64,000 nucleotides of DNA, taken from the NCBI GenBank assembly GCA_003545435.1, contig DPYI01000025.1, positions 19,701 to 83,700 on the forward strand. The letters are read 5' to 3'. The translations under genes and the position numbers were made by a program. This DNA is from Patescibacteria group bacterium. Lineage in GTDB: Bacteria; Patescibacteriota; Microgenomatia; UBA10105; UBA927. Shown here in pieces: positions 1-58,061 of the stretch (its first letter is position 1; every line of letters begins with the position of its first letter). The notes beneath the pieces are model-generated. The model was given only the letters and a program-made list of their open reading frames with translations, was not told the origin of the DNA and ran no database searches.

Positions 1-273
1 AAAACGGTTATATTCTATGCCTCCTACGTGCGCTGCAAGATTCATGATTATATCCTGATTTTTGCAGGCCTCCCTTGCTGTTTCTCTATCAGTACAATCT
101 CCTTTGATAAACCTTGCTGTGTCTTTTAAATATCCGATATTTTTTACTTTTCCGTCACGCATCATATCCAGAACCGATACGGAGGCGCCAAGCTTTACTA
201 ATTTCTCTACGACAAAACTTCCGATAAAACCCGTTCCTCCTGTTACCAATACATGCTTATTTTTCCAAAACAT
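1..273 (-). CDS. NAD-dependent epimerase/dehydratase family protein, N-terminal 91 aa only (gene continues beyond window start)
   Basis: Reverse-complement of 1..273 translates MFWKNKHVLVTGGTGFIGSFVVEKLVKLG..., a Rossmann GxxGxxG motif typical of SDR sugar epimerases/reductases; ATG at 273..271; no stop before position 1. Not in the supplied ORF track because it is truncated. Confidence 0.6.
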   Translation of the reverse strand, partial: MFWKNKHVLVTGGTGFIGSFVVEKLVKLGASVSVLDMMRDGKVKNIGYLKDTARFIKGDCTDRETAREACKNQDIIMNLAAHVGGIEYNRF

Positions 274-285
274 AGGGAGTTTTTT

Positions 286-1461
286 TTAAGAAAATATTGA
301 AATCAATGTTTTTATTTCCTTATCCGTCAATTCGGGATTATTTCCGAAATACAATCCCTGTTCATGTGCGATATTTGCATTTGTAGGTATGTCGCGTTTG
401 GCACCATTTACGTATTTTAGATAAAACGGTTGTTTGGTCATGTCCCCTCCGACGATAGGTCGTATTTCTACGAGTCCGTTACATTTTTTTACCAGGTCAT
501 CCCGTATCTTTTGAGTTCTACAGACAATAGGTACAGCAAAATTGGATACAATGTCCATGTGATCATAGCGGATGGGATAATACTGTGCGGTATTTCCGTA
601 AATAATCCTCGCTATGGCGAAAAAATTAGATTGACGTTTTTTTACAATCTGGTCAAGATATGACAGCTGAATATTTCCGACAAATCCCTGAATTTCCGTT
701 GTACGTAAATTGTATCCCAGATCATAAAAGGTATATCGTGAATAAAATGTCTCATTGACATGATGTTTGATGCGGATTTTCAGCTGTCTGTCTTGGGTAA
801 GATTCCTGTCCCATCCGTGAGCACGGACAAACTGCAGCATGGTCTCAAGTTCCGTGTTATCAGTACACACCGCTCCTCCTTCTATCGTCGACATGTGATG
901 ACCTACATAAAATGAAAATGTACTGGCCAGACCAAAATTTCCCAGTTTTTTCCCTTTATAAACCGAGCCGAGTGATTCGCAGTTATCTTCTATCAAAAGA
1001 ATGTCTTTCTTTTTACAGATTCTGTATATTTCATCAATGTCATCACAAAAACCAAGTAAATTCGTCAGAAATAACATTTTTATGGGATGCTTCTGGATCG
1101 TTTTCAGAAGAATTCGGGAAGAAACATTCAGCGTGTCAAGCGCACAATCAATGGGCACAGGTTGAAGCCCCAATTCAATAAGCGGCATGACGTTTGTAGA
1201 CCACGTGAGAGCTGAAAAACCGACTGCATCTCCCTTTTTAATTTTTCCCAGGTTAAGAAGTGCCTGAATGATAGCTAAATTTGCACTGCTGCCGCTGTTG
1301 ACAAATACGCAATGTTTCCGTCCCTGATATTTTGCAAAATTATGTTCGAATTTTCCGCATTCTTTTCCGATACTTAGCATGTGTGCATTTTTTATAAAAA
1401 CACACAGTTTCTGTTTTGTATTCTTTTCGTTGTAGAAGGTTGATTTGATAAGCTTGATCAT
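286..1461 (-). CDS. DegT/DnrJ/EryC1-family PMP/PLP-dependent sugar-modifying enzyme, ColD-like 3-dehydratase candidate
   Basis: 391 aa. VNSGSSANLAII is the DegT fold. The active-site segment FSFYVGHHMSTIEGG has His-His where aminotransferases carry the Schiff-base Lys, as in GDP-4-keto-6-deoxymannose 3-dehydratase (ColD, ~388 aa). Also RAHGWDRNL and IRPIVGGD motifs. Confidence 0.75.
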   Translation of the reverse strand: MIKLIKSTFYNEKNTKQKLCVFIKNAHMLSIGKECGKFEHNFAKYQGRKHCVFVNSGSSANLAIIQALLNLGKIKKGDAVGFSALTWSTNVMPLIELGLQPVPIDCALDTLNVSSRILLKTIQKHPIKMLFLTNLLGFCDDIDEIYRICKKKDILLIEDNCESLGSVYKGKKLGNFGLASTFSFYVGHHMSTIEGGAVCTDNTELETMLQFVRAHGWDRNLTQDRQLKIRIKHHVNETFYSRYTFYDLGYNLRTTEIQGFVGNIQLSYLDQIVKKRQSNFFAIARIIYGNTAQYYPIRYDHMDIVSNFAVPIVCRTQKIRDDLVKKCNGLVEIRPIVGGDMTKQPFYLKYVNGAKRDIPTNANIAHEQGLYFGNNPELTDKEIKTLISIFS

Positions 1462-1494
1462 AAAAATCTAAAATACTGAGCTTGCCGAAGTATA

Positions 1495-2655
1495 TTACAA
1501 AAGACCTCTGAATGCATCGGTAAAAATATGATCCCATCTATATTTCTTTGCAAATGCTAACGCATTTTTCCGCATTATTTCCATTTTTTTCTTATTTTTT
1601 AACAGTGAAACGACTGCACGCGCTAGACACCTTTTATCATACGGAACAATCAGAGAGCATCCCGTTTGAAACGATTCCTCGGCAATCGAACCCACATCAG
1701 TCATAATAACCGGCAATCCGCATGCAAAGTACCTCTTTATTTTCCCCGGTTCTGTATGGGTAACAACAGTGTTTGTTGGCGTATATGAAGCGATACCAAG
1801 AGCGGCCTTTGCTACGCGTTTGTCAGTCGTGTCGGGATCTTCTATGTAGCCAATAAATGTAACATGCTTCTCTAAATTTTTCTCTTTTATCATATGTTCA
1901 AGAGACTTCCGATATGGCCCTTTGCCAATGAGTGAAAAATGAACAGAAGGGACAGCGGGAATGATATACTGCAGGGCTTCGATCACCAGCTGAATTCCCT
2001 GACCTTCGACAATTGACCCCAGATACATAACTTCATTTAAAGAAAGGCGTTTTGGTTTTTCTCTATCATATCTTACCCTGACACCATTCGGCGTCACCTT
2101 CTGATTTGGAAATATTCTCTTCCATCGGCTGGTCCGGGCAACTATCATCTGAGGAGCATAATTCCAAGTAGCATCACAAAACACGGCACACCAGTAATCA
2201 AGCCGATGATAGAGAGCGTTCATGAGTGCATGTGAGAAACGCCTTGGGATATAGTCAATCACATAATAAATACACTGGTTAATTTTTCCCGCCATTCGAA
2301 GGAATAATCCGTTAAATGCATTGAGATTTCCCAGTCCGATATAGTAATCGATTTTCCCCGGTACAGAGAGGGTCCAATAGAGAGTAACGATACTGTCTAT
2401 CCCGTACGCAATTGCTTCCGGAAGAAACGACGTTGTTGGTGCCGTACTTTTTTTTATCATTCTGCCGGATTCATACCATTCCCTATAGGATGATCGAACA
2501 CTATTATCCTCCATGGATCGGTTCCGATGTCCGATAAAGACAAGGGTTTTAATGCGACGAGAAAGTAAAAAATCCCTTAGTTCATGCGGCGGACCGAACA
2601 TCGCATCATGACAGACAATAACAGTGGTTTTTCCTCTAAAATCAGGTTTTTTCAT
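1495..2655 (-). CDS. Glycosyltransferase, GT4-like (GT-B fold)
   Basis: 386 aa soluble protein; C-terminal GYIEDPDT...GLPVIMTDVGSIAEE resembles the GT4 EX7E region; 4-nt overlap with the downstream gene. Confidence 0.55.
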   Translation of the reverse strand: MKKPDFRGKTTVIVCHDAMFGPPHELRDFLLSRRIKTLVFIGHRNRSMEDNSVRSSYREWYESGRMIKKSTAPTTSFLPEAIAYGIDSIVTLYWTLSVPGKIDYYIGLGNLNAFNGLFLRMAGKINQCIYYVIDYIPRRFSHALMNALYHRLDYWCAVFCDATWNYAPQMIVARTSRWKRIFPNQKVTPNGVRVRYDREKPKRLSLNEVMYLGSIVEGQGIQLVIEALQYIIPAVPSVHFSLIGKGPYRKSLEHMIKEKNLEKHVTFIGYIEDPDTTDKRVAKAALGIASYTPTNTVVTHTEPGKIKRYFACGLPVIMTDVGSIAEESFQTGCSLIVPYDKRCLARAVVSLLKNKKKMEIMRKNALAFAKKYRWDHIFTDAFRGLL

Positions 2656-3881
2656 GAAGCGTGCATATCAATAAATTTTTGAAAGACTTTTTTCATATAA
2701 ACGATATGTTTTGGAGTTATTCCAGGATAGACGCCGATCCAAAAGCCGTTGTTCATAATCAAATCAGAATTATGTAATGTACCGGCAACACGGTAATCTT
2801 TTCTTTTTAGATACGCCGGATGTTTCAGGAGATTACCGGCAAAAAGATTCCGCGAACCTATTTTGTGCTCCTCCAGATATTTCACCAATTCAAGCCTCGT
2901 AAACGGCGCGTCATCTTTGACGACCAACATAAAACCAAACCAGCAAGGATCAGCTTCTTTTTCCCACCCGGGAAGTATAAAATACTTCTCGTGTTCCTTG
3001 AAAAAAATATAGAAATCTTGAAAATTTTTTTTCCGTTTTTTGATAAATTTCGGAAGCTTCTCAAGTTGAGCTACGCCAATCGCTGCCTGAAAATCCGTAA
3101 GCTTCACATTGTACCCGATCTGTGAATAAATATATTTATGGTCAAACCCTTTCGGAAGGTTGCCTAATTGCCAGTCAAATCTTTTGCCGCACGTATTGTC
3201 GTATCCTGTGTCGCACCAGCAATCCCGCCCCCAGTCACGGAATTGCCTAACGGAACGGTGAATAAGAGGATTATTGGTAACTACCGCTCCTCCCTCGCCC
3301 ATGGTGATCTGATGCGCCGGATAAAAGGAAAATGTTGCTACTGACCCGAACGCACTTACCGGTTTCCCGTTATATTGTGAACCTAACGCGTCACAGCAGT
3401 CTTCGATAAACCAGAGGTCATATTTCTTTACAAGCTCCATAATGCCCGCCAGCGGCAAGGGATTCCCTAATGTGTGTGCCAGCATAATTGCCTTTGTCCG
3501 TTTTGAGACAGCTTTTTGAATCATCTCGACAGTTGAATTTTTTGTAAGGATGTCCACATCGATAAATACCGGAATACACTGGTTTTGTACTATAGGATTG
3601 ACAGTCGTTGGAAACGCGCATGCTGCGGTAATGACTTCATCCCCCGGCTTCAAAGCCCTTTTCCCAAATACGGCCGATGTTAGAGCGGACAAAGCTAACA
3701 AATTTGCAGATGATCCGGAATTCACTAACGAAACATATTTGATTCCGATATAGGAAGAAAATTCCTTTTCAAACTTTTTTGCAAACCGGCCTTCTGTCCA
3801 CCATCCGTCACGTGCTGCTTGTATTGCGTTTGTTACTTCCTTCTGATCAAACACTTTACCGGTTGCTGGAATGTATTTCAT
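2652..3881 (-). CDS. rfbH: CDP-4-keto-6-deoxy-D-glucose 3-dehydrase (E1, RfbH/DdhC/AscC-like), PMP and [2Fe-2S] dependent
   Basis: 409 aa DegT-fold protein (VNSGSSANLLALSAL); His replaces the PLP Lys (FSFYPAHQITMGEGG); the cysteine pattern EDCC-x57-C-W-C-DTGYDNT-C matches the E1 [2Fe-2S] motif C-X57-C-X1-C-X7-C exactly. Confidence 0.85.
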   Translation of the reverse strand: MKYIPATGKVFDQKEVTNAIQAARDGWWTEGRFAKKFEKEFSSYIGIKYVSLVNSGSSANLLALSALTSAVFGKRALKPGDEVITAACAFPTTVNPIVQNQCIPVFIDVDILTKNSTVEMIQKAVSKRTKAIMLAHTLGNPLPLAGIMELVKKYDLWFIEDCCDALGSQYNGKPVSAFGSVATFSFYPAHQITMGEGGAVVTNNPLIHRSVRQFRDWGRDCWCDTGYDNTCGKRFDWQLGNLPKGFDHKYIYSQIGYNVKLTDFQAAIGVAQLEKLPKFIKKRKKNFQDFYIFFKEHEKYFILPGWEKEADPCWFGFMLVVKDDAPFTRLELVKYLEEHKIGSRNLFAGNLLKHPAYLKRKDYRVAGTLHNSDLIMNNGFWIGVYPGITPKHIVYMKKVFQKFIDMHAS

Positions 3882-3897
3882 GAGACACCTCTGTTTT

Positions 3898-4122
3898 TTA
3901 TTTCTTTGGTTTTGTGAAATAGGCTTCGATTATCAAAAAAACCATTCCTGTGCAAAGGACCATATATGCAAAGGATCCTATCTTTTCAGTATTTCCAAAA
4001 GGATAGAGAATTGTACACAGCATGGCAGATATCAGGGTAATAAAACCTACAGAAATGCAGGCATCAGTCATTATCCGTACCATGCTCGTCAGATGAATCT
4101 GATTATACCTTACTTTTTTCAT
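3898..4122 (-). CDS. Small hydrophobic membrane protein (hypothetical, 74 aa)
   Basis: Fills the only gap between two minus-strand genes; two predicted TM helices; same orientation as the operon. No recognisable motif. Confidence 0.3.
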   Translation of the reverse strand: MKKVRYNQIHLTSMVRIMTDACISVGFITLISAMLCTILYPFGNTEKIGSFAYMVLCTGMVFLIIEAYFTKPKK

Positions 4123-6331
4123 ATTTTCGACTTTTTACATATATCCATAAAACCGTACCTCCGGCAACGGCAGTCAGAAAAATCCCCGCATAGTAAGAGA
4201 GCTGTGGCTGAAAATACAAAAGAAATGACATGCGCAGTTTTCCGTTGGGCAGTTCTTCAACAAACTCTTTCGAATAGGTCTTTTTCAGATACTCCGGATC
4301 CAGATCCCAGCTGTTGGCCCATCCGTACAGAATATTGTGATTGTGGTCAGGAATCTGTATTCCTTTCCGAAAAATTATACTCTTCCCGTAGGATTTTTGA
4401 GGGATAGGGTACAATTTCCACCATCTGGAATAATTTTCCAGAAGCACTAAAGAGACTGTATCAGAAAAACCCGATATCCGGATGCGTATCTGGACCGGAT
4501 TTTCCCTTTCATACTCAAAAGATAGTGAGGGGTCCTCATCTGCCAGTGATACAAGATCGGATCTGCATGTGTCTTTGACACCATACATGTATATGCCGCT
4601 TTTCTCCTGACCCAATATCTCTTTTGACTGAATGTCGAAAGACGCATCCAGGATTGAGATAATGCTTGATTGAGGAATTTCAATTTTCGTCTCATCAGCA
4701 TAATCTGTCCGTACGACAATATGGGAAATTCCCAATTCCCCAGCTTTTGTACAAAAAGATTGTCCTTCTCGTATGAGCCTCATCAAGGTATTGGTTTGTT
4801 TTTTATACGGAAGGTCCACGGAGTAGCCAGTGGGGTCGGGGCTTATGACGGGAACTTTCCATAATTCATAAATGAAATCAATGCCGGAATACCCGTTCAT
4901 TGACTGATTGAATTTCGGATACACACCGTATGTTCCGGGCAAAAGGAGTATGCGCGTCGCTTTTTCCATTTTCAGCCTATTTCCTGCATCAACGTAATAG
5001 TCTGGTATATGAAATGACGTCAGTCCGCCGGCAAAAATAAAACTATACACCAGCCAGCCGATGCATCCTCCGAACACTATGCCTGCTGTCACTCGTAATA
5101 CAGTTCGGAACCTAGCCATTCTCTCTTCAAAAAAAGCAAGCCCCATCATTGAAAGAGAGATATAAAAGAAGAAAAACTCCCAATAGAATTTGCTGACCGG
5201 ACGTCTGAAAATCTGAAATCCGGGTATGTGTTCATACAAAAACTGAAACATATTTCCCCACGGTTCCCTGACCCCTTTTGAAATAAACACTCCTAAAAGA
5301 AGCAGTCCAAAAAAAATGCGGATACCCGGATTTCTCTGTCTTTGAAAAAGTGCATATCCTAAAAAAACTGTCATGAGGAGAAACAAAAGAGGAAGAGGAA
5401 AGCGGAAATAGCCAAAATAGGAAGGCGTATCATACAGTTGACCTTCAGCGCGCCCTAAAAAAATATTTCCTATTGTCGAAAATCCCGTTGCTGCTACTAC
5501 TCCTGACATAAGCGGATTGGTTTCATACTGCGCATGTGAAAAAAATTGTGTCACGAGAAACGGAATAAGCCACCACGAACATGCTAAAATCATGAGTATG
5601 AATACCAAAATATATCGTTTGACCGTCCGAACAGACGGTATACGGGAAAGAAGAATCGAAAAAAGAGCATATGCACTAAAAATTATTGCCAGTATGTATG
5701 GTACGGAGATGCTGTACGCTGCTCCTGACACAGAACTGAAGAACAGGAGAAAAAGAAGCAAAACTTTTTTGTATGATATGTTCTGTTCTTCCAATATATG
5801 AACATAGAACAACAAAATCCAGGGGAAGAGCGCATACAGAACAAGACTCAGGAAATGACCGGGTGCAATAAGACCTATCGGGTATGGTGAAAATCCATAA
5901 AGCTCCGCTCCGATGAAAGACCAAAAGAATGTTCTATGCTTTTTTAAATTCAACGAATGAACCAAATATTCCTGAAGAAACTGAAACATTGATACCTGCG
6001 ACAGGAAAAGAAGAAGGCTGATAAAAAAAAGAACGCTGAAATGAGGAGACACATGAAGCTGGGATAAAACCCACATAATCACATGGTAGGGAAAAAGCGT
6101 TGATAATTGAGGCGTGCTTTCATACCCTGCCGTATGGAGCGGATCATAGACAAACAGGTGGTTTCCAATCTCATATGCAAGGTCAACCGGAGAAGAAAAA
6201 TCACAGCTCCCTGCGAGGGGGTATATCGCATTGGAGCTTTTCCAGAAAAAAGGAGCCAGTGACAGGCAGGCAAAAAAAACGTATGGAAGAATGTTCTTTC
6301 TGTGTGATAGAAGTTTTGTCAAAAGCTTCAT
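4103..6331 (-). CDS. Large polytopic membrane protein (742 aa), putative GT-C-type glycosyltransferase/polymer-modifying enzyme
   Basis: More than 12 hydrophobic segments in the N-terminal 430 aa, a ~250 aa hydrophilic domain, then a C-terminal TM helix; start overlaps the upstream stop (ATGA). Confidence 0.55.
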   Translation of the reverse strand: MKLLTKLLSHRKNILPYVFFACLSLAPFFWKSSNAIYPLAGSCDFSSPVDLAYEIGNHLFVYDPLHTAGYESTPQLSTLFPYHVIMWVLSQLHVSPHFSVLFFISLLLFLSQVSMFQFLQEYLVHSLNLKKHRTFFWSFIGAELYGFSPYPIGLIAPGHFLSLVLYALFPWILLFYVHILEEQNISYKKVLLLFLLFFSSVSGAAYSISVPYILAIIFSAYALFSILLSRIPSVRTVKRYILVFILMILACSWWLIPFLVTQFFSHAQYETNPLMSGVVAATGFSTIGNIFLGRAEGQLYDTPSYFGYFRFPLPLLFLLMTVFLGYALFQRQRNPGIRIFFGLLLLGVFISKGVREPWGNMFQFLYEHIPGFQIFRRPVSKFYWEFFFFYISLSMMGLAFFEERMARFRTVLRVTAGIVFGGCIGWLVYSFIFAGGLTSFHIPDYYVDAGNRLKMEKATRILLLPGTYGVYPKFNQSMNGYSGIDFIYELWKVPVISPDPTGYSVDLPYKKQTNTLMRLIREGQSFCTKAGELGISHIVVRTDYADETKIEIPQSSIISILDASFDIQSKEILGQEKSGIYMYGVKDTCRSDLVSLADEDPSLSFEYERENPVQIRIRISGFSDTVSLVLLENYSRWWKLYPIPQKSYGKSIIFRKGIQIPDHNHNILYGWANSWDLDPEYLKKTYSKEFVEELPNGKLRMSFLLYFQPQLSYYAGIFLTAVAGGTVLWIYVKSRKYEKSKV

Positions 6332-7260
6332 GTGGGTTTTCGTTGAAATAGCAGCTTTATGACTGCTGAAGCTATCAAATGAACAGATAAACCGTTTTGA
6401 TCATGCATATATTCCTGCAAACCGATTTTTTCCGTAAACCTATCAGGGACACCCATGCGCTGAAAGGGCGTTCCCAGCGATGACTCTGCAAGCACTTCGC
6501 TCACCGCACTGCCCAAACCTCCGATAATGCTATGATCCTCAAGGGTAATGACTGCATGTGTTTTTTTCGCACTCTCGAGAATAAGAGGAGCATCAATCGG
6601 CTTTATTGTATGCATGCTGATGACGCGCACCGAGCAGCTCTTTTTTGCAAGCAGCGCTGCCGCTTCCAATGCCCGAGAAACAAGCGTGGAGGTTGCAACA
6701 ATAGTTGCATCGGATCCATCCTGCAGAATGATCCCTTTCCCGATCCGAAAACGCGGTTCTTTGTTGTAAAGAATTTTTTCTCCGGCTTTGCCTAAACGAA
6801 AATACACTGGTGTGTTCGTTGTCAGCATTGCTCTCGTTGCGAGATGAACTTCCGTAGGATCTCCGGGAGCAATAATAGTCATATCAGGAAGTGTTCTTAA
6901 AATGCCGATATCTTCAAGACTATGGTGTGTGTGGCCGTATGGTCCGTAGGAAAATCCTGCTCCAACGCCGACTATCTTTACATTGAGATTCTGATAACAG
7001 ATGTCGTTCCTGATTTGTTCAAAATTGCGCATTGTCACAAAGGGAACAATGGAATATATAACCGGTTTATATCCTTCCATCGCTAAACCGGCAGCAACGC
7101 CGGTCATATTCTGTTCCGCAACCCCGGCATTGAGATACTGTTTCGGAAGTTCCCGCATAAAGTTCTCGAATGCGGAAAACCCCAGATCTCCTGTTAGGAG
7201 AATAATCCGATTGTCCTTTTTGGCTTCTTCCAAAAGCGTCGCGGCAAATGTATTTCTCAT
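6328..7260 (-). CDS. Transketolase, C-terminal (pyrimidine-binding) subunit of a split transketolase
   Basis: 310 aa; GVAEQNMTGVAAGLAMEGYKPVIYSIVPF and C-terminal transketolase domain motifs; adjacent to the N-terminal subunit. Confidence 0.85.
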   Translation of the reverse strand: MRNTFAATLLEEAKKDNRIILLTGDLGFSAFENFMRELPKQYLNAGVAEQNMTGVAAGLAMEGYKPVIYSIVPFVTMRNFEQIRNDICYQNLNVKIVGVGAGFSYGPYGHTHHSLEDIGILRTLPDMTIIAPGDPTEVHLATRAMLTTNTPVYFRLGKAGEKILYNKEPRFRIGKGIILQDGSDATIVATSTLVSRALEAAALLAKKSCSVRVISMHTIKPIDAPLILESAKKTHAVITLEDHSIIGGLGSAVSEVLAESSLGTPFQRMGVPDRFTEKIGLQEYMHDQNGLSVHLIASAVIKLLFQRKPT

Positions 7261-7268
7261 GGGAGTAT

Positions 7269-8090
7269 TTACGAACCTCTGTCTAATATTTCCATTACTT
7301 CTTTATATTCATCTTCCGTAGGAGGTTTATACTGTGATGAAATCTGATTGACGTGTTTTGCGACTCCTCCCCGCCCTTTTATTGTATGCGCGATGATAAC
7401 TGACGGATTCCCTTTGGTGAAAGGAACGGAAGTGAAAGCGTCAACGAGCTGTGTAAAGTTATGACCGTCAACCTCTCGGGCTTCCCAGCCGAATGCTTCC
7501 CATTTCTCAGCAAACGGCTCCAGGTCAAGGACGTTTTTCGTATATCCGAATCCCTGAAGCTTATTGTAATCAACGACAGCAATGAGGTTGTCGAGCTTGT
7601 GCTGTCTGGCAAACAGAACCGCTTCCCATGTGGATCCCTCGTCGCACTCACCGTCAGAAAGGATTGCGTACACTTTCCATTGTTTCCTGCGTTGTTTTCC
7701 GGCAAGAGCAACTCCTGCTGCCATTGCTAGCCCGTGACCAAGGGACCCCGCCGACGCTTCGATACCAAAACTCACATTCCTCGTGGAATGACCGGCGAGC
7801 AAGCCGCTGTCCATCTCATACCCATCTAACACCCGTCTGTCAAAAAACCCCCGCTGGGAAAGAACCGCGTACAATGCTTTCGCATCGTGTGCCTTGCTGA
7901 AAATCAAACGGTCTCGGTTGTCGTTGGAAGGATCTTTTGGAAATACGCGCATAACACGGAAATAGAGGGCAACCAGTATTTCGACACATGACAGCGCTCC
8001 TCCCGTGTGGGCGCTTTGAGCCCGGAAACTCATCATAAGAATTTGTTTTCGGATTTCTATAGCTATCTTTTTCAGTTGTCCTATGGACAT
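7269..8090 (-). CDS. Transketolase, N-terminal (TPP-binding) subunit of a split transketolase
   Basis: 273 aa; SAHTGGALSCVEILVALYF...GHSTRNVSFGIEASAGSLGHGLAMAAGVAL is the TPP-binding transketolase N-domain. Confidence 0.85.
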   Translation of the reverse strand: MSIGQLKKIAIEIRKQILMMSFRAQSAHTGGALSCVEILVALYFRVMRVFPKDPSNDNRDRLIFSKAHDAKALYAVLSQRGFFDRRVLDGYEMDSGLLAGHSTRNVSFGIEASAGSLGHGLAMAAGVALAGKQRRKQWKVYAILSDGECDEGSTWEAVLFARQHKLDNLIAVVDYNKLQGFGYTKNVLDLEPFAEKWEAFGWEAREVDGHNFTQLVDAFTSVPFTKGNPSVIIAHTIKGRGGVAKHVNQISSQYKPPTEDEYKEVMEILDRGS

Positions 8091-9028
8091 ATGTATCCTC
8101 TTTTTTCTGTCTTTTCCACTATATATGTTGGTCTGGACTTGGTCTCCTCTACAATCACCTGAATATATTTACCGATAATGGATAATGCCAGAAGATTCAC
8201 TCCGCCGAAAAAAACTATACTCACCAATATGGTTACTGCTCCCTTTATCGGATTTCCAAAGAGAAAAAAGAAAAGAATATATATGATAATAAATAGAAAA
8301 GATAAAAATACCAATATCAATCCAAACCATATTAACAGATCAAGAGGAAGATAGGAAAACCCGAATACACTCCGTTGGGCGTGCTGGAAATATGATATGA
8401 GCGAGTATGAACTTTTCCCGTGTATCCTTTTTTTCCGTTCATACGGTATATAGGCTGTCGAGAAACCAACCCAAGCGCGAATCCCCCGGGCAAAACGGTA
8501 TTTTTCGGGCAGATGCATCATGGCATTAACGACTCTCCTGGTATATAAGCCAAATCCGCTGCTATTAATCGGAATATTTACGTTTGAGATGATTCTCATA
8601 ATTTTATAAAAAGCTTTTCGTAAAAACACGATAAGCATCGGATCTTCGAGCTTCGTATAAATACCTATAATGCTATCGTATCCCTCTTCCCATTTCTTGA
8701 TAAATGTTGGCAGCAATTCTTCCGGCTCCTGAAGGTCGCAGGGGTACCAAATAACCGCATCGCCCTTAGTAAAATCAAAGCTGGCCTGAGAAGATGCTTC
8801 GGGGCCGAAATTTCTGGAAAGAAAAACACCTCTCACCGCACGATCTTTCTGTACCAGGCGATGAATTTCGATTCTTGTTTTATCAAGGCTGCCGTTATCG
8901 ACAAATATGTATTCGAAATCATACTTTTTTATTCCACGAATGATCTTTCGCAGCCTGCGGTATGCCTCACCAACATTTTCTTCCTCGTTATAACAAGAAA
9001 TGCCGATGGATATCAGTTGTTTTCTCAT
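8081..9028 (-). CDS. GT2 polyprenyl-phosphate sugar glycosyltransferase (GtrB/ArnC/Dpm1-like) with C-terminal TM helices
   Basis: 315 aa; ISIGISCYNEEENV...FVDNGSLDKT GT2 DXD-type N-domain, plus two C-terminal TM helices as in bactoprenol glucosyltransferase GtrB (~305 aa). Confidence 0.75.
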   Translation of the reverse strand: MRKQLISIGISCYNEEENVGEAYRRLRKIIRGIKKYDFEYIFVDNGSLDKTRIEIHRLVQKDRAVRGVFLSRNFGPEASSQASFDFTKGDAVIWYPCDLQEPEELLPTFIKKWEEGYDSIIGIYTKLEDPMLIVFLRKAFYKIMRIISNVNIPINSSGFGLYTRRVVNAMMHLPEKYRFARGIRAWVGFSTAYIPYERKKRIHGKSSYSLISYFQHAQRSVFGFSYLPLDLLIWFGLILVFLSFLFIIIYILFFFLFGNPIKGAVTILVSIVFFGGVNLLALSIIGKYIQVIVEETKSRPTYIVEKTEKRGYICP

Positions 9029-10095
9029 ATTTTTTTTGTTCGCATGGATAAACGTTTCATTTCCGACCAGCTATATCCAAATACCATGAGGAGAGACATA
9101 ATCGGATGGAGAAACCACGCGATATCAGGTTTTGATATAAATCCCTTCACGCTTATATATAAGGGTTGAATGATTGTTAGAGAAAATACTATAAATGCAG
9201 TTAAGTTGCGGCGGTCTTTGGGGGAATGGGAGTTATAGACTAAATATCTCCGTTTTCCCTTCAGGGTATCCGTAAAATACTTTTTTACCTCCACCCGCCT
9301 TATTACCTGATCCATAATATTCGGGCGGGAAACATGAATGATGCTGTTTTTTACGACGCCTACTGTATCATACCCCATACAAAGAAGCTCTCTATATCCG
9401 TCTGTATGGTAGAACGGCTTCCCTTTTCGGACCACTTTCCTAAAAACTTCAGCGCGTATCATACATCCATTATCTCCCATAACAGGCTGGTTATCTTCAG
9501 TGAACCGGACTATAGTATATTTTTGTGTATCTTTTATTATTTCCCCTTTATCATATTTCATCTGATCCATGCGGATTTTATCTGACTTTTTCAAATAGTA
9601 CAGTGTCGGATCGGGGGATCCGATTAATGCAAAGTATTTCGTAAGAATATCATCAGACGGATCGTATCCATTGTGCATGGAAAACGTCGAAAAAACATCT
9701 TTTTCCTTAAAAGGAGCCACCATGTCAGTCAGCCAACTTGACGAAGTCATTATGTTGTCCGATTGTAAAATCAAAACGATGTCTTCCTTGATATATGATA
9801 AAGCCCGGTAATAACGACCTAATCCTTCATTCTGATCATTTATAAAAGATAATATCCGGGGGTGATATTGACGTGCGACGGCAAGCACCTTTTTATGGCT
9901 TCCTCCGTCCAATATATAATGCCGGAATAGCCCCTTATACCGTTGTTTGCGTACAGCCTCAAGACATCTGGTAAACACTGCGATGTTTGGATTAAACGTA
10001 TTGGTGATAATTGCAATGGAAGGATTACTCATGGGTAGTGTGAATCTATAATTCATCTTTTTGTATGGTATTTTTCTGTTTCTTGTACCATGCAT
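9025..10095 (-). CDS. GT2-family glycosyltransferase with C-terminal membrane anchor
   Basis: 356 aa; N-terminal SIAIITNTFNPN... GT2-like; C-terminal hydrophobic helices. Start uncertain (alternative ATGs at 10056 and 10032), which affects the overlap with the SDR gene. Confidence 0.5.
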   Translation of the reverse strand: MHGTRNRKIPYKKMNYRFTLPMSNPSIAIITNTFNPNIAVFTRCLEAVRKQRYKGLFRHYILDGGSHKKVLAVARQYHPRILSFINDQNEGLGRYYRALSYIKEDIVLILQSDNIMTSSSWLTDMVAPFKEKDVFSTFSMHNGYDPSDDILTKYFALIGSPDPTLYYLKKSDKIRMDQMKYDKGEIIKDTQKYTIVRFTEDNQPVMGDNGCMIRAEVFRKVVRKGKPFYHTDGYRELLCMGYDTVGVVKNSIIHVSRPNIMDQVIRRVEVKKYFTDTLKGKRRYLVYNSHSPKDRRNLTAFIVFSLTIIQPLYISVKGFISKPDIAWFLHPIMSLLMVFGYSWSEMKRLSMRTKKI

Positions 10096-10912
10096 GCAAT
10101 CGAAGCAGTGATTGATAAAAAGGCGTAAAAGTTATCTGTGGCATTTCATTTTTCAATCTCGTGATATCGCACGTATATTCATTTGCTAACTCCTTTTTCT
10201 TAACATAAATCATATGCTTTTCTTTCCCCAATCTCGTGATTGTTTTGGCAATCGTCATGAGATTAATCTTCTTTCCGGTTCCGATATTGTATGCTCTGTA
10301 TGCAGGCTTATTTTTAATAAAATGATCAATTATGGGTGCCAAATCCTGAACATCCATATAGTCAAAATAGACATCCTGCTTCATCGTGATTGGTAACCCA
10401 TGGATATATCTGCATAATGCATTTGAAATAAATCGGTGTTGATAATTTTCCCCCTCTCCAAAAATTCCAAAAATCCGAAGGTCTATCATGTTATCGGTTT
10501 GATGAATGTAGTTTGAACATATGTATTTATACAACCCGTATTCATCGTTGGGAATTTGCTTCCCAAAATCTTTTTCCTTGATGTTGACTATCGGATGCCT
10601 CTTGTCGTACACAGCGCCCGATCCGATATGAATCAACCGTTGATAATATTTTCTGCACCGAGCAAGATTAAAAAAAATACAGATATTATCATAAAACATA
10701 CCTTTAACAAATAAATGAGGTCCGTTGCTTCCAACTACGGCGCAATGAATGACGATATCGACTTTATTTATTAAAAAATAGGATTGCACCTTCTTTTCAT
10801 CAAGCAAATCTAATTGTCTGTGATTCGGAGTTAGTAATGTATATTTTTGAGAAAGGGCAGTTTTCAGATGTGTTCCAATAAATCCGGTGGAACCCGTAAT
10901 GAGTATGTTCAT
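10046..10912 (-). CDS. NAD(P)-dependent SDR sugar reductase/epimerase (CDP-abequose/paratose synthase-like size)
   Basis: Start moved to internal MNILITGSTGFIGTHL (ATG 10912); 288 aa; YGLYKYI gives the YxxxK catalytic motif; divergent from the TPP-enzyme gene. Confidence 0.65.
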   Translation of the reverse strand: MNILITGSTGFIGTHLKTALSQKYTLLTPNHRQLDLLDEKKVQSYFLINKVDIVIHCAVVGSNGPHLFVKGMFYDNICIFFNLARCRKYYQRLIHIGSGAVYDKRHPIVNIKEKDFGKQIPNDEYGLYKYICSNYIHQTDNMIDLRIFGIFGEGENYQHRFISNALCRYIHGLPITMKQDVYFDYMDVQDLAPIIDHFIKNKPAYRAYNIGTGKKINLMTIAKTITRLGKEKHMIYVKKKELANEYTCDITRLKNEMPQITFTPFYQSLLRLHAWYKKQKNTIQKDEL

Positions 10913-11042
10913 AATCTTACAACCTGGCAAGTTTCTCCAGTCATCGTCCAGAAAAGCGTTTTTATTTTATCACAATCGATTTAGATTTTTTTCATATTCT
11001 ATCTCTAAGAGATATGCAACTGGCACATACTACCTTCTATTA

Positions 11043-11071
11043 TTGATTTATCCTTTGTGTTTAAGGATAAT
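11043..11071 (+). promoter_or_regulatory. Candidate sigma70-type promoter for the plus-strand TPP-enzyme gene, in the 178-nt divergent intergenic region 10913..11090
   Basis: TTGATT (11043..11048), a 17-nt spacer, then GATAAT (11066..11071); ATG at 11091. Confidence 0.3.
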
Positions 11072-11090
11072 ACCACTGTTACGTAATTTT

Positions 11091-12872
11091 ATGTATTCCC
11101 GCGTTGCTGACTACATTATTGATTACATATACCGGCATGGAACCGACACTATTTTTACCGTTGCCGGAGGCGGAGCAATGTTTCTGAACGATGCGGTAGC
11201 ACTGCATAAGAAAATCACATATATATGCAATCATCATGAACAGGCTTCCGCCATGGCAGCTGAAGCGTATGCAAAAACGAAGGGCCACATTGGCGCGGCT
11301 ATGATCACCTCAGGACCCGGAAGCACGAATGCCATTACCGGCCTTATGGAGGCCTACCAAAATTCAATTCCTGTTATTTTCATCTCCAGCCAAACAAAAA
11401 AATCTCAAATGATTGCGTATTCAGGGATTACTGGATTAAGACAGTTTGGGATTCAGGAAGTGGACATTATTCCGGTCGTCAAACATCTCACTAAGTACGC
11501 AGCTATTGTGGAAAAACCGGAAGACGTACAATACCATTTAGATAAAGCCTATTATGTAGCTCTTTCCGGTCGCCCTGGGCCGGTATGGCTGGATATTCCT
11601 TCTGACGTGGCTTCTTCCTCATTACCCCAACACCGTACCATGTTTACGATTCCGCAACAGATGCACAATGGTGTAACAGATGAACACATTAAAAAAATTA
11701 TTTCTTTGCTACGTAAATCAAAAAAACCTCTCATTATAGCCGGCGGCGGCATAAAACTGGCAAAAACAAGAAATGAATTCCGGGCGTTTATAAACAAATC
11801 AAAAATACCCGTCGTCTGTCCTGATATGGGTATTGATATTCTTGAATACGATAACCCATATTATGTCGGCCACGGAGGCACAAAAGGCGACCGCGCCGCC
11901 AATATCGTCATTCAACAGAGCGATCTTATCATATCTTTGGGGAGCCGCTTGGCAGTACCGTTTATCGGACACGAGTATGACACGTGGGCACCGAATGCCT
12001 ATAAAATTGTTGTGGACATAGACGAAAGCGAACATAAGAAAAAGACGATTACTATAGATTTATTTATACACAGCGATGTCAAACAGTTCCTAAAAAAATT
12101 AAACGCGTGTCTAAACAAATCTTCTATTAAAGACACATGGATACATTATTGTCAGAATATTAAGAAATCATATGCTTTAAAATATGCAACAGTCTCAACT
12201 GATAAAACACAAGAGATAAATATGTATGATGCAATTCACGAAATTTCCAACCAATCCAAACCGAATGATGTTTTTATTACCGATGCAGGAATTACAGCCT
12301 ATGTATCTACTCAGACAATAAAAATTAAAAAAGATCAAAGGCTGATTCTTCCGGGAGCCACTCTCACTATGGGATACAATCTGCCGGCAATAATTGGTGT
12401 TTGGGCAGCTGATCGCCATGCGCGGATAATCTGCATCACCGGAGATGGATCATTTCAGATGAATATCCACGAGTTGGCTGCTATTACGCACAATAAAATA
12501 CCTGTAAAGATATTTATTATGAACAATCACGGGTATCTGGCTATTCGGACGACCCAAAAAATTTTTTTTAATAAGCGTTTGATCGGTGAAGGACCAGAAA
12601 CCGGTGTCTCTTTCCCAAATACAGAAAAAATAGCCCAGGCGTATGGTTTGAAGTATTTCTGCATAGAATTCAAAAAGGACCTTCACAAAACTATTAAAAG
12701 GGTTTTAACCTGTAAAGGTGCAGTCATCTGTGATTGCATCCTGCCATATTGGCAGGACCACATTACCGTATCATCAAAAGAACTTGAAACCGGAAAAATT
12801 GTTTCTCTGCCGATAGATGATATGTATCCCTATCTATCCGATGAAGATAAATTGTCAATAAAATCTATTTAG
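11091..12872 (+). CDS. TPP-dependent acetolactate-synthase-family enzyme (YerE-like candidate C-C bond-forming enzyme)
   Basis: ORF start trimmed to MYSRVADYIIDYIYRHGTDTIF (ATG 11091); 593 aa; three-domain ALS architecture, with a GDGSFQMNIHELAAITHNKIPVKIFIMNNHGY TPP/Mg-binding motif. Confidence 0.8.
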   Translation: MYSRVADYIIDYIYRHGTDTIFTVAGGGAMFLNDAVALHKKITYICNHHEQASAMAAEAYAKTKGHIGAAMITSGPGSTNAITGLMEAYQNSIPVIFISSQTKKSQMIAYSGITGLRQFGIQEVDIIPVVKHLTKYAAIVEKPEDVQYHLDKAYYVALSGRPGPVWLDIPSDVASSSLPQHRTMFTIPQQMHNGVTDEHIKKIISLLRKSKKPLIIAGGGIKLAKTRNEFRAFINKSKIPVVCPDMGIDILEYDNPYYVGHGGTKGDRAANIVIQQSDLIISLGSRLAVPFIGHEYDTWAPNAYKIVVDIDESEHKKKTITIDLFIHSDVKQFLKKLNACLNKSSIKDTWIHYCQNIKKSYALKYATVSTDKTQEINMYDAIHEISNQSKPNDVFITDAGITAYVSTQTIKIKKDQRLILPGATLTMGYNLPAIIGVWAADRHARIICITGDGSFQMNIHELAAITHNKIPVKIFIMNNHGYLAIRTTQKIFFNKRLIGEGPETGVSFPNTEKIAQAYGLKYFCIEFKKDLHKTIKRVLTCKGAVICDCILPYWQDHITVSSKELETGKIVSLPIDDMYPYLSDEDKLSIKSI

Positions 12873-12887
12873 AATTCACGTACGTCA

Positions 12888-13847
12888 TTACCGGTACGAT
12901 TGAGTCTTTTTATACCACACATATGTTTGTTGCAAACCCCTTCTCAATGAATGCGTATTTTTCCATCCCAACGCCCTTATTTTGTTATCATTCAGGTGCT
13001 GATATGGAATTTCACTTTTTGCTGAATTGAGAATTGTGTAGTGTATGTGCTTCTTTAGAATTTTTTCAGTGTTTTTTATCAAATCTAGGACAGAAAAATT
13101 ATTGTCAGATGATATATTAAAAGCCTGACCTGCTGTTCTCTTCATATGCCGGATTAGAAATGCTGTAGCCAGAGCTATATCTTTAACATAAACATAATCC
13201 CGTATATATGTTCCATCGCTTCGAACCTCAAGTACGGAGTTTGTAATCAGCGCTTTACATATTCCGGGAATAATCCTATCAAAATGTATGTCTCCTTCTC
13301 CAAACACGTTGCCAAACCGCGTAACGATAACCGGTAATCCATATGTTTTTCCATACGTCTGGGCTATGAGATCCGTGCAGGATTTGGATACATCATATGG
13401 ATGATCACCTTTCAGGGGGGATTCTTCCGTATACGGTTTGGTTGTCTTTCCGTATGCTTTGTCAGAAGAAGCTACAAGAATACCTTGTATACCGGCTGTA
13501 CGCCTGCATGCCTCCAGCACATGCACAGTACCCATAATGTTTGTTTTAAAAACATCATAGGGATTATCATACGCTTCCTGGACTATCGGAAGAGCCGCCA
13601 GATGGATAACATACGTTGGACTAACTGACGCAAATACTGCTTCAACTTTTTCTCTTTTTGTTATATCTATAATTTGATAATTTGTTTTCTTGTCTAATGA
13701 TTTCAGAAAAAAATACGATTTGCAGGGGTTTTGAATATCTATGACGGTAACGTCATATTTTTTTCGTACTAGCAGTTCTACGAGATGAGCCCCGATGAAT
13801 CCTGCTCCGCCGGTAACCAGTACACGGAGGGGTTCTAATCGTTCCAT
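12888..13847 (-). CDS. CDP-glucose 4,6-dehydratase-like SDR (RfbG/DdhB-like)
   Basis: Start set at MERLEPLRVLVTGGAGFIGAHL (ATG 13847); TNIMGTVHVLEA and HPYDVSKSCTDL (YxxxK) resemble the CDP-glucose 4,6-dehydratase signatures TNVMGTVHLLE and DPYSNSKGCAEL; immediately downstream of rfbF. Confidence 0.65.
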   Translation of the reverse strand: MERLEPLRVLVTGGAGFIGAHLVELLVRKKYDVTVIDIQNPCKSYFFLKSLDKKTNYQIIDITKREKVEAVFASVSPTYVIHLAALPIVQEAYDNPYDVFKTNIMGTVHVLEACRRTAGIQGILVASSDKAYGKTTKPYTEESPLKGDHPYDVSKSCTDLIAQTYGKTYGLPVIVTRFGNVFGEGDIHFDRIIPGICKALITNSVLEVRSDGTYIRDYVYVKDIALATAFLIRHMKRTAGQAFNISSDNNFSVLDLIKNTEKILKKHIHYTILNSAKSEIPYQHLNDNKIRALGWKNTHSLRRGLQQTYVWYKKTQSYR

Positions 13848-14620
13848 ATTTTCCAGGGAGGAGACTGTTCTTTCCATAGAGAGTTTAACCGCTCCACGTC
13901 TGCATAGGTGTCCATAGAATGCCAAAATCCTCTATGGATATACAGAGACAATTCACGTTTTTTTATGAGACGTTTCAATGCCTGGTGTTCCATTTCCCCC
14001 TTTTTAAGGTAATCGAAAAAACTATATTGGAAAATCATGAATCCGCCATTCACCCAATCCCGAAGCACCGGTTTTTCTATAAATTCAGTAATGACATTCC
14101 ATCTATTGATATGAACTAATCCGTATTTGCTCCGGGGGTACACTCCCGTGATAGTACCTGTAGTTTTTTGTTTTTTATGAAATGAGACCAATTCCTTAAC
14201 ATCTATATCCCCCACACCGTCTCCGTAGGTAACCATAAAATCTTCATTGTTTGGAATATAATCCTTTATCCTTAGAATCCGTTCTCCGGGAAGAGTATCA
14301 AGTCCCGTGTCAACAAACGTAATTTTAAAATCATCAATGCGTTTCCCGTCGGTTGTATCTCTGTAAATTTTGGCATACCCTGTTTTTGTCGATAACGTAA
14401 AATCATGAATAAAATATTTCTGATTGAGGAAATAATCCTTTATATATTCACCCTTATATCCCAATGCAATGATAAAGTCATTACATCCGTAATGGGAATA
14501 GATTTTCATAATGTGCCAGAGGATCGGTTTGTTTCCAATAAAAACCATTGGTTTTGGCTTAAATTCTGTTTCCTCTTTCAGGCGATATCCTATTCCGCCG
14601 CACAGAATAACTGTTTTCAT
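13835..14620 (-). CDS. rfbF: Glucose-1-phosphate cytidylyltransferase
   Basis: 261 aa; MKTVILCGGIGYRLKEETEFKPKPMVFIGNKPILWHIMKIYSHYG...PPWKIWND aligns along its whole length with Salmonella RfbF (MKAVILAGGLGTRLSEET...KPKPMVEIGGKPILWHIMK...APWKTWE). Confidence 0.9.
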   Translation of the reverse strand: MKTVILCGGIGYRLKEETEFKPKPMVFIGNKPILWHIMKIYSHYGCNDFIIALGYKGEYIKDYFLNQKYFIHDFTLSTKTGYAKIYRDTTDGKRIDDFKITFVDTGLDTLPGERILRIKDYIPNNEDFMVTYGDGVGDIDVKELVSFHKKQKTTGTITGVYPRSKYGLVHINRWNVITEFIEKPVLRDWVNGGFMIFQYSFFDYLKKGEMEHQALKRLIKKRELSLYIHRGFWHSMDTYADVERLNSLWKEQSPPWKIWND

Positions 14621-36760: not shown

Positions 36761-37303
36761 TTATTCTGAAAGTTCCGAAACTGTTCGTCCCCTGATTGCG
36801 ACTGACTGAAGAATAAGAGATTGTATATCTAATTGGATAGATGCACTTTTCTCCGGCACCCACAGAAATGATTTTGGTACTGTTGCGTTTATAGTAGTAA
36901 GAACTTCCGTATGTTTCACAGCAGCCGACCGAACTGTTTCTGATAGATTCCGAACGTCTTTCCCCTCCAACATAGCTTTACGGATATATTCAGGTATGAC
37001 TGAAAATTCTTCGTTTGAGCGATTTAAAGCATCAACCGCCAAGAGATACTGCTGATACTCAAATAGCGTTTTTGCTTCCACTACGTATTTATCCGAAAGT
37101 CCGATATGGTATTTAATTTGTGCAATATTACCGAAATACCAATATCCTTTCAGGATATCGAGAATTCTAGATACGTTATACAGCTTATTTCCCGGCATAT
37201 AAGAAGGGTATGGAAGAGTGTACGCTGCGCGTACCAATGACCAATGACCAATGACCAATGACAAAAAAATAGCTATACCGGCATGTAACAGGAATTTCTT
37301 CAT
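36761..37303 (-). CDS. Small secreted/periplasmic protein with signal peptide (hypothetical, 180 aa)
   Basis: MKKFLLHAGIAIFLSLVIGHWSLVRAAY signal peptide; the h-region is encoded by a (CCAATGA)x4 heptamer tract. Confidence 0.45.
   Translation of the reverse strand: MKKFLLHAGIAIFLSLVIGHWSLVRAAYTLPYPSYMPGNKLYNVSRILDILKGYWYFGNIAQIKYHIGLSDKYVVEAKTLFEYQQYLLAVDALNRSNEEFSVIPEYIRKAMLEGKDVRNLSETVRSAAVKHTEVLTTINATVPKSFLWVPEKSASIQLDIQSLILQSVAIRGRTVSELSE
37234..37261. repeat. Perfect heptanucleotide tandem repeat (CCAATGA)x4 inside the 5' end of CDS 36761..37303
   Basis: Read directly from the sequence: gtaCCAATGACCAATGACCAATGACCAATGAcaaaaaaa; encodes LSLVIGHWSLV on the minus strand. Confidence 0.9.
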
Positions 37304-57982: not shown

Positions 57983-58061
57983 AACTACTGCATAAGATGA
58001 ATATCTCTTAATTCCTATTCTTTTATAATTGATAATAGTATACTACGCTTATATACCTTTC

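Follow-up and report, generated by a model that had tools for sequence, protein, structure and literature searches.

The first 14,620 positions of a 64,000-nucleotide stretch of DNA from a Patescibacteria group bacterium of the lineage Microgenomatia (contig DPYI01000025.1 of assembly GCA_003545435.1, positions 19,701 to 83,700; hereafter the window) carry a gene cluster that is predicted to encode the first three enzymes of cytidine diphosphate (CDP)-3,6-dideoxyhexose biosynthesis, including an iron-sulfur E1 3-dehydrase, together with two thiamine diphosphate (ThDP)-dependent candidate branching systems and a set of glycosyltransferases (Table 1). It appears probable that this cluster would carry out the three classical CDP-sugar steps and then branch the product and deliver it to the cell surface, and for the end product itself the balance leans towards a sugar branched at C-4, of the yersiniose type. 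An earlier note on this DNA had described the same genes as a complete-looking CDP-3,6-dideoxyhexose module. The core of that description holds, but the ThDP enzyme, which is similar to YerE and JanthE, a split transketolase (TK) and a dehydratase similar to ColD had been overlooked, and these shift the predicted product from a plain to a C-branched 3,6-dideoxyhexose.

In the proposed pathway, the RfbF-like cytidylyltransferase would form CDP-glucose from glucose 1-phosphate and CTP, the Asp-Lys-type 4,6-dehydratase would convert this into CDP-4-keto-6-deoxyglucose, and E1, using pyridoxamine 5′-phosphate (PMP) and a [2Fe-2S] cluster, would deoxygenate C-3 to give CDP-4-keto-3,6-dideoxy-D-glucose, the two electrons probably coming from an unlinked general ferredoxin/flavodoxin system, as they do for SpnQ. 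Beyond these three enzymes we infer that the 4-keto product is probably captured by the ThDP-dependent C-C ligases of the cluster and not simply reduced. The YerE/JanthE-like enzyme would acylate C-4 with a 2-keto acid as donor (most simply pyruvate), the short-chain dehydrogenase/reductase (SDR) encoded at 10046..10912 would reduce the branched side chain, as YerF does, and the non-canonical split TK, a second candidate ligase, may add a two-carbon ketol branch. A glycosyltransferase of the GT2 class resembling GtrB and PgfS would then load the yersiniose-type branched 3,6-dideoxyhexose or -hexoses on polyprenyl phosphate, and GT-C enzymes would pass them to an acceptor at the cell surface. 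We know of no outer membrane in bacteria of the candidate phyla radiation (CPR), so the acceptor would be no O-antigen in the usual sense. Neither an RfbS/RfbJ-like 4-ketoreductase nor an RfbE-like 2-epimerase was found in the locus; branching would leave a tertiary alcohol at C-4 and no 4-ketoreductase would be needed, which fits the missing RfbS-like enzyme.

The E1 3-dehydrase and its distribution

The product of 2652..3881 scores 636.2 bits against the NCBIfam RfbH equivalog NF011936 (cutoff 423), has the DegT/AAT fold (Pfam DegT, E=4.5e-91) and finds its top solved structure in E1 of Yersinia pseudotuberculosis (3bcx, E=8.9e-149, residues 3-406 aligned); its identity to Salmonella RfbH is 53%. 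The cysteine spacing that the earlier note had read from the sequence is exact (C163-x57-C221-x1-C223-x7-C231), and the His that stands in for the usual Lys is His190, located within FYPAHQITMGEGG, in the column of H220 of the Yersinia enzyme, a position occupied by Lys in the mutant entry 3bb8 (H220K). Among 203 aligned E1 homologues, no substitution occurs at H190, C221, C223 or C231, and C163 is present in 198, whereas the cysteines outside the motif drift (C88 is kept in 76, C102 in 71 and C313 in 115; range 71 to 159), which argues that the [2Fe-2S] motif is under selection and is no chance pattern. This same 409-residue protein is encoded by over 20 contigs, which originate from several samples. 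Profile, structural match and motif thus agree in making the predicted protein a genuine E1/RfbH 3-dehydrase, with best matches among E1 enzymes and not among Lys-bearing DegT aminotransferases, and the E1 module adds another member to a family that is already well known.

A survey of one genome per GTDB species returned at least 594 relatives of E1. The 80 best of these (54-68% identity), together with three CPR loci, constitute the 83 E1 loci referred to below (individual loci carry L numbers), in which up to 10 kb of flanking sequence was queried with the window proteins. Represented among the best 80 are CPR lineages (Gottesman-, Roizman- and Shapirobacteria and WWE3), Omnitrophota, Chloroflexi, Acidobacteriota, Planctomycetota, Elusimicrobia, Deinococcota, Clostridia, Bacteroidota, gammaproteobacterial metagenome-assembled genomes (MAGs) and Archaea (Methanoregula and Methanobacterium). 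Homologues of RfbF accompany E1 in 57 of the 83 loci and homologues of the dehydratase in 63; the ThDP enzyme is found in 40, the split TK in 9 and both of the latter in one, and neither of the two lies within 10 kb in the remaining 35. The presence of the module in a CPR-like genome had been called unexpected, a surprise that is unwarranted in view of at least 594 relatives spread over CPR, Archaea, Chloroflexi, Clostridia, Acidobacteriota and further groups, and of the many CPR homologues that NCBI has already named RfbH. Among the top-ranked matches in the literature, no publication was found that pairs CPR or Patescibacteria with dideoxyhexose, rfbH, CDP-glucose or tyvelose.

The cytidylyltransferase and the 4,6-dehydratase

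The cytidylyltransferase aligns end to end with that of Salmonella typhi, as had been noted, with residues 2-259 matching 4-258 of the 259-residue RfbF (1tzf, E=6.7e-63) and 43% identity to Salmonella RfbF. The next-best families reach E values of 1e-22 or weaker, and the enzyme is predicted to be of the CDP type and not of the deoxythymidine diphosphate (dTDP) or uridine diphosphate type. Immediately downstream, and overlapping the end of rfbF, lies the CDP-glucose 4,6-dehydratase-like SDR that had been recognized in the same position. Its SSDKAYG aligns with STDEVYG of a dTDP-glucose 4,6-dehydratase, placing an Asp-Lys couple where the dTDP type has Asp-Glu, and its YDVSK represents the Yx3K motif. 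According to a 2022 review, an Asp-Lys couple at this position is what marks CDP-glucose 4,6-dehydratases (PMC8987622). In an alignment of 64 dehydratases, comprising that of the window and 63 from E1-linked loci, exact SSDKAYG occurs in 47 and the canonical T[TS]DKCY form in 12. The identities of the three core enzymes (cytidylyltransferase, 4,6-dehydratase and E1), as predicted from these features, are held with high confidence.

The predicted ThDP-dependent carboligase and its proposed SDR partner

The ThDP gene lies between the dehydratase and SDR genes, 7 kb from E1, and its product contains the canonical GDG-x24-NN motif. Among solved structures the best score is with JanthE (8rph, 319 bits), the best acetolactate synthase (acetohydroxyacid synthase, AHAS) reaching 234; JanthE is a characterized YerE-like carboligase that accepts ketones (PMC12247030). 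An assignment as acetolactate synthase was rejected, as the protein falls far under the cutoffs of the NCBIfam AHAS equivalogs (358 against 538 and 362 against 738), no small-subunit gene is listed in the annotation and the protein clusters with E1-linked enzymes. In two loci, from a Roizmanbacteria MAG (L012) and a gammaproteobacterial MAG (L013), the E1 gene is accompanied by two paralogous ThDP enzymes.

The SDR 10046..10912 has homologues in 14 of the 83 E1 loci and a ThDP gene is present in all 14 (Fisher p=8.8e-6). This association matches the scheme described for yersiniose, erwiniose and caryophyllose, in which DdhABC(D) act with a ThDP enzyme and a reductase, C-4 acylation by an enzyme of the YerE type being followed by side-chain reduction of the YerF type (PMC9306805). 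No similarity to Salmonella paratose synthase or 2-epimerase was detectable, and a role like that of paratose or abequose synthase was discarded on the former ground.

Two further observations bear on the distribution of such clusters. The Microgenomates locus L007 (JBAQFJ010000001.1, 1939..11245) has an erwiniose-like layout, with genes in the order RfbF, dehydratase, Fer4/LdpA_C protein, HAD protein, HMGL-like aldolase, ThDP enzyme, SDR, E1 and methyltransferase. Three methanogen MAGs (L019, L021 and L072) encode an E1 of 57-61% identity along with RfbF, dehydratase and ThDP enzyme, and in L019 and L021 also the SDR homologue, and branched 3,6-dideoxyhexose synthesis may thus extend to the Archaea.

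A non-canonical split transketolase linked to E1

The E1-linked non-canonical split TKs are the most novel element of this analysis. In the window TK and in six further E1-linked TKs, the cofactor-binding and catalytic residues of Escherichia coli TktA (numbering checked on the K-12 sequence) are kept at H26, H66, H100, D155, N185, E411 and H473. Other active-site positions are altered: in the C-terminal subunit (TK-C) of the window, H461 is replaced by Gly, E468-D469 by Pro-Tyr and R520 by Lys, and the column of S385 is a gap, while across all seven H461 becomes Gly or Ala, D469 becomes Tyr, Ala or Gln, R520 is mostly Lys and S385 again falls in a gap. By contrast, the structure nearest to TK-C (6yaj), a split TK from Carboxydothermus hydrogenoformans that is functional, still has His, Glu-Asp and Arg at these positions. 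The window TK scores below the NCBIfam TK cutoffs (202 against 488 and 243 against 488). A metagenome scan placed the nearest relatives of TK-C, at 62-72% identity and with the motif G[VI]GAG[FY]SYGPY[GA]HTHH, beside RfbF, dehydratase, E1 or the GtrB-like GT2; canonical ATHAG..VGEDGASHQ sequences appeared only at 42-45% identity and without CDP-sugar genes.

Where a split TK is present in the survey, the genes for its N-terminal subunit (TK-N), TK-C and E1 can be contiguous (L008, L010, L022 and L060), and the nine loci compare with about one in 83 expected for a single-copy housekeeping gene, by our own estimate for a 20 kb span in a genome of ~2 Mb. Only one of the nine also contains a YerE-like gene, so that the two are nearly mutually exclusive (p=0.02). 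E1-linked TKs were found in CPR, Omnitrophota, Margulisiibacteriota, Chloroflexi, Acidobacteriota and gammaproteobacterial MAGs. The two TK genes of the window are outliers in GC content (45.7% and 48.5%, compared with 39.4% for the window and 35% to 42% for their neighbors), which may reflect recent acquisition or strong constraint on the amino acid sequence.

Split TKs have been predicted to branch keto sugars, all of them from Streptomycetes and none shown to be functional, and acceptance of a ketone is still unproven for any TK (PMC12247030). The E1-linked clade is a plausible but unproven extension of that group, as judged by sequence. That it represents an unrecognized clade which serves as an alternative to YerE and adds a two-carbon branch to CDP-4-keto-3,6-dideoxyglucose is put forward as a tentative proposal, which we regard as less likely than not. 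If true, hydroxyacetyl- or dihydroxyethyl-branched 3,6-dideoxyhexoses would occur in the surface glycans of CPR and several uncultured phyla, formed via an E1 without a linked E3 reductase, and the CPR organism studied here would produce either two sugars with different branches or one that is doubly modified.

About equally doubtful is the opposite view, that the split TK is an ordinary pentose-phosphate transketolase or some other non-branching enzyme which lies in a glycan locus by chance, leaving the YerE-like enzyme as the only one that branches. The intact cofactor-binding and core catalytic residues, the functional split TK as closest structure and the lack of any TK proven to accept ketones (PMC12247030) are in line with it, and the higher GC content (46-48% against 39%) would fit a conserved housekeeping gene or a recent insertion. 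It does not sit easily with the recurrence of the TK beside E1, with coding regions that overlap E1 or glycosyltransferase genes, with its near-exclusivity towards YerE-like genes, with the loss of H461, D469 and S385, or with closest relatives that reside in CDP-sugar loci when split TKs carrying the canonical motif are more distant and lack such genes.

Plain or branched product

The cluster could instead make a plain CDP-3,6-dideoxyhexose of the abequose, paratose, tyvelose or ascarylose type, the SDR 10046..10912 reducing C-4 and/or epimerizing, and the ThDP enzyme and TK being unrelated to the pathway. The three core genes are present as in such pathways, SDRs are available in the cluster, and the 35 E1 loci without either branching candidate mean that unbranched products do exist in this E1 clade. 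For the window we nevertheless regard a plain product as unlikely, given that the SDR 10046..10912 resembles neither Salmonella enzyme and that its homologues occur only where a ThDP enzyme does, that the second SDR (1..273) is paired with the ColD-like gene, and that ThDP enzymes are enriched near E1, with 40 of the 83 loci containing one. Both SDRs had been proposed as the 4-ketoreductase or epimerase; they exist as described, but that role finds no support in the ThDP association of the one and the ColC-like character of the other. Nor is the module complete in the sense originally suggested, as E3 and an RfbS/RfbJ-like 4-ketoreductase are missing from it.

Several points count against a branched sugar made by the classical core and delivered to the surface. 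All protein roles in the locus are predicted from sequence and not from measured activity. The cytidylyltransferase covers the whole of TIGR02623 (query 1-259, model 1-255 of 255, E=5.5e-82) at 275.1 bits, under the cutoff of 300.25. The dehydratase lies below both applicable NCBIfam cutoffs (170 against 278.45 for the CDP-type TIGR02622 and 185 against 365 for the dTDP type) and is equidistant from RfbG (30% identity) and RfbB (29%). PpYerE (5ahk) scores 212 bits with the ThDP enzyme, less than the plant acetolactate synthase at 234, so the label YerE-like rests on JanthE and on gene context; the separation of E1-linked ThDP enzymes, that of the window among them, from E. coli IlvB and IlvI comes from a neighbor-joining tree that lacks support values and has just three E. 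coli sequences (IlvI, IlvB and Gcl) as outgroups. The ThDP gene is opposite in strand to the other genes of the locus and convergent with the dehydratase gene, and no aldolase was found near it in the locus. No E3 gene that could supply electrons to E1 was detected within the window or 80 kb of the contig. Lastly, the TK could be a housekeeping or unrelated enzyme, and the substrates of the two ThDP systems may be different sugars, one of them for instance the product of the ColD-like enzyme. The branched, yersiniose-type product remains the preferred reading at the strength given at the outset.

Electron supply to E1

The earlier note saw no E3 (RfbI/DdhD-type reductase) in the window, and a wider search agrees with it. 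A scan of all six frames of the window detected no Fer2 or Fer4 cysteine motif. With Salmonella RfbI as query, tblastn and phmmer gave no significant match (best E=0.045) in the window, in two flanking loci that extend the search to 80 kb of contig (positions 19,720-100,080 of LCFF01000001.1, the window being approximately the reverse complement of 26,366-90,365 of that record) or in the 83 other E1 loci; as a positive control, RfbI matched its own Salmonella locus at 676 bits. The Fer2 pattern matches Salmonella RfbI, and the FNR pattern, which would miss its GGTGFAP, was not relied on. The same query found no E3 within 8 kb of an rfbFGH locus on an Azospirillum plasmid. Within this E1 clade the lack of a linked E3 is therefore usual, and it does not mark the present locus as defective. 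For the E1 homologue SpnQ, electrons are supplied by general ferredoxin or flavodoxin reductase pairs (PMC8987622).

The candidates raised by motif scanning of the survey loci were radical-SAM/SPASM proteins, a methyltransferase, a DUF362 protein and one Fer4/LdpA_C protein, and were set aside; a conserved alternative reductase was likewise rejected, proteins with a Fer4 motif being near only 4 of the 83 E1 loci and none of them conserved. The Fer4/LdpA_C protein, in the Microgenomates locus with the erwiniose-like layout, is a possible dedicated iron-sulfur carrier that is not conserved in other loci. In the Salmonella plasmid record NZ_CP022016.1, an intact rfbI (L177, 5028..6002; a 324-residue open reading frame (ORF) with the Fer2 motif, RSYS and GGTGFAP) sits in an unannotated gap between rfbC and rfbF and is missing from the PLSDB gene table, so a gap in such gene tables does not prove that a gene is absent.

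That an E1 without E3 performs no reductive deoxygenation at all, acting as a transaminase, as SpnQ does when its reductase is not supplied (PMC8987622), or as a hydrolytic dehydratase in the manner of ColD, would accord with the lack of E3 around the window and the related loci, but is very improbable given that the conserved cluster cysteines imply continued selection for electron transfer through the cluster, that an Fe-S-free ColD-like enzyme is already present in the same locus and that E1 itself gave no transamination under SpnQ-like conditions (PMC8987622).

A ColD-like and ColC-like gene pair

At the left end of the window, the pair at 1..1461 would provide a second, Fe-S-independent route of 3-deoxygenation acting on some nucleoside diphosphate (NDP)-hexose. 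In the ColD-like protein, GHHMSTIEGG aligns with the SHHIATMEGG that contains His188 of ColD, and the CxC cluster motif is absent. The adjoining SDR runs off the window; its full-length form (L001, 13609..14577) matches guanosine diphosphate (GDP)-L-fucose synthase (7ll6, E=2.8e-53), whose family includes ColC, with SSACVYP and SSH at the Ser-x-Cys and His positions, and scores 203 bits with NCBIfam Fcl, below the cutoff. The pair is kept in the Nealsonbacteria locus L009 at 66% and 69% identity, and ColD-like orthologues of 66% identity occur in the E1 loci L009 and L011. Over 80 kb of contig, neither a GDP-mannose 4,6-dehydratase (GMD) nor a mannose-1-phosphate guanylyltransferase (ManC) was detected.

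Downstream of this pair, outside the window on its left side (L091, 12108..21176), there are genes for an Acyl_transf_3 acyltransferase, a GT4 glycosyltransferase, a second GDP-fucose-synthase-like SDR (302 bits), a WbqC-family protein, two GH130-like proteins, a B12-binding radical SAM enzyme, a formyltransferase and a methyltransferase, a content that points to additional modification of sugars, for example by C-methylation or N-formylation.

Glycosyltransferases and the wider glycosylation island

Nearly all genes in 1..14,620 are on the minus strand, many with overlapping start and stop codons, and those for the GtrB/PgfS-like GT2 and the GT-C protein overlap pathway genes. The GT2 scores 226 bits with NCBIfam PgfS and 116 with ArnC, both under cutoff, and has homologues in 29 of the 83 E1 loci, often adjoining E1.

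Table 1. Predicted genes of the first 14,620 positions of the window.
Position	Strand	Length (aa)	Predicted product	Features
1..273	-	322 (full length)	GDP-fucose-synthase/ColC-like 3,5-epimerase-4-reductase, N-terminal part	Runs off window
286..1461	-	391	ColD-like Fe-S-free NDP-4-keto-6-deoxyhexose 3-dehydratase	ColD/WbdK 2gms, E=3.2e-57 (best PDB match)
1495..2655	-	386	GT4 glycosyltransferase	Pfam Glycos_transf_1, Glyco_trans_1_4; start overlaps E1 end
2652..3881	-	409	E1, CDP-4-keto-6-deoxy-D-glucose 3-dehydrase (RfbH/DdhC/AscC), PMP and [2Fe-2S]	RfbH model, 3bcx, motif
3898..4122	-	74	Small hydrophobic ORF, no ferredoxin	In public annotation; no Fe-S cysteine motif
4103..6331	-	742	GT-C-type polytopic membrane glycosyltransferase	Pfam GT-C_AftD, E=1.9e-6; overlaps TK-C end
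6328..7260	-	310	Split transketolase, C-terminal (pyrimidine-binding, Pyr-domain) subunit, non-canonical active site	6yaj, E=3e-66
7269..8090	-	273	Split transketolase, N-terminal (pyrophosphate-binding, PP-domain) subunit	Pfam Transketolase_N
8081..9028	-	315	GtrB/ArnC/PgfS-like GT2, probably a polyprenyl-phosphate glycosyltransferase	Pfam Glycos_transf_2
9025..10095	-	356	Weak GT2-like protein, C-terminal membrane segments	Glyco_tranf_2_3, E=5e-4; NodC-like, E=1e-7; overlaps both neighbors
10046..10912	-	288	Extended SDR, proposed YerF-like reductase partner	Pfam Epimerase, RmlD_sub_bind; PDB matches weak
11091..12872	+	593	YerE/JanthE-like ThDP-dependent carboligase, candidate C-4 acyl-branching enzyme	Pfam TPP_enzyme_N, _M, _C
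12888..13847	-	319	NDP-hexose 4,6-dehydratase, Asp-Lys (CDP-glucose) type	SSDKAYG, YDVSK; start overlaps rfbF end
13835..14620	-	261	Glucose-1-phosphate cytidylyltransferase (RfbF/DdhA-like)	TIGR02623, 1tzf

A single glycosylation island takes up the entire window and 80 kb or more of the contig (14,855..64,000 and the flanks L090 and L091); in it, ~20 large polytopic GT-C-type membrane proteins (PMT_2, YfhO, PTPS_related or without Pfam match) are interspersed among GT2 and GT4 genes; a Wzx-like flippase (26000..27262) and an FkbM methyltransferase (20224..21066) are also encoded. At 58029..59771 (+) a 580-residue ORF matches PMT_2 (E=1e-10) and STT3, and the public annotation of LCFF01000001.1 has there a 253-residue ORF on the opposite strand (58365..59126, -) without Pfam match, so that a GT-C glycosyltransferase has probably been obscured by an error in gene calling. 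Glycosylation loci of CPR repeatedly encode a DUF5667 protein (window 36761..37303; L008 14593..15144; L009 11208..11762), its gene lying directly beside E1 in L009 and ~3.3 kb from E1 in L008.

Implications and comparison with known systems

For CPR bacteria, which live attached to host cells, the chemistry of the surface glycans is uncharacterized. The locus described here predicts rare branched deoxysugars on the surface of a Microgenomates bacterium, a class of sugars that has so far come mainly from the lipopolysaccharide (LPS) of pathogens and from antibiotics. The survey shifts the textbook picture drawn from the O-antigens of Salmonella and Yersinia, in that E1 is widespread across phyla and usually has no linked E3, and in that over half of the 83 loci contain a ThDP-dependent branching candidate. 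Ketone-accepting ThDP enzymes are in demand for the production of chiral tertiary alcohols; transketolases with this ability have so far only been predicted, and only from Streptomyces (PMC12247030), and the E1-linked split TKs constitute concrete new candidates.

Compared with the ddhABCD (rfbFGHI) systems of Yersinia and Salmonella, the window locus shares an RfbF of 43% identity, an E1 of 53% identity to RfbH in which the His and four Cys are kept, and the Asp-Lys couple of the dehydratase, but it has no E3 (RfbI/DdhD), RfbS/RfbJ or RfbE. Its dehydratase belongs to a divergent SSDKAYG clade with 30% identity to Salmonella RfbG, and its host, as far as we know, is a CPR bacterium without an LPS-bearing outer membrane, unlike Salmonella and Yersinia. 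With the ColD/ColC system of GDP-L-colitose, the pair at the left end of the window has in common the His188 equivalent and the missing Fe-S motif of ORF 286..1461 and the Ser-x-Cys and His kept in the adjoining SDR; it differs in having no GMD or ManC in the surrounding 80 kb.

SpnQ of spinosyn forosamine biosynthesis is likewise a 3-dehydrase that uses Fe-S and PMP and whose gene cluster encodes no cognate E3 (PMC8987622). The likeness is by description, and the substrate of SpnQ is a dTDP-2,6-dideoxy sugar of secondary metabolism, whereas the partners of the window E1 suggest a CDP-glucose-derived substrate and a surface glycan. The split TKs of the miharamycin and amipurimycin clusters of Streptomyces are also encoded by two genes beside a keto-sugar-forming enzyme in a sugar-modification cluster (PMC12247030); these belong to the secondary metabolism of Streptomycetes, whereas E1-linked TKs occur in several phyla, and the comparison, again by description, is between functions that on both sides are predicted only.

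The closest parallel to the pathway as a whole is offered by yersiniose A, erwiniose and caryophyllose, for which the enzymes that supply the E1 product are clustered with a ThDP carboligase and a reductase (PMC9306805). The ThDP enzyme of the window is closest to JanthE, with GDG in the ThDP motif where JanthE has CDG. The window locus differs from these clusters in having neither an ErwI-type aldolase (the CPR locus L007 has an HMGL-like gene) nor an E3, and in possessing the extra split TK. What is new in the locus is the combination of an E3-less E1, two ThDP-dependent branching candidates, a second 3-dehydratase of the ColD type and delivery by a GtrB-like GT2 and GT-C enzymes without LPS.

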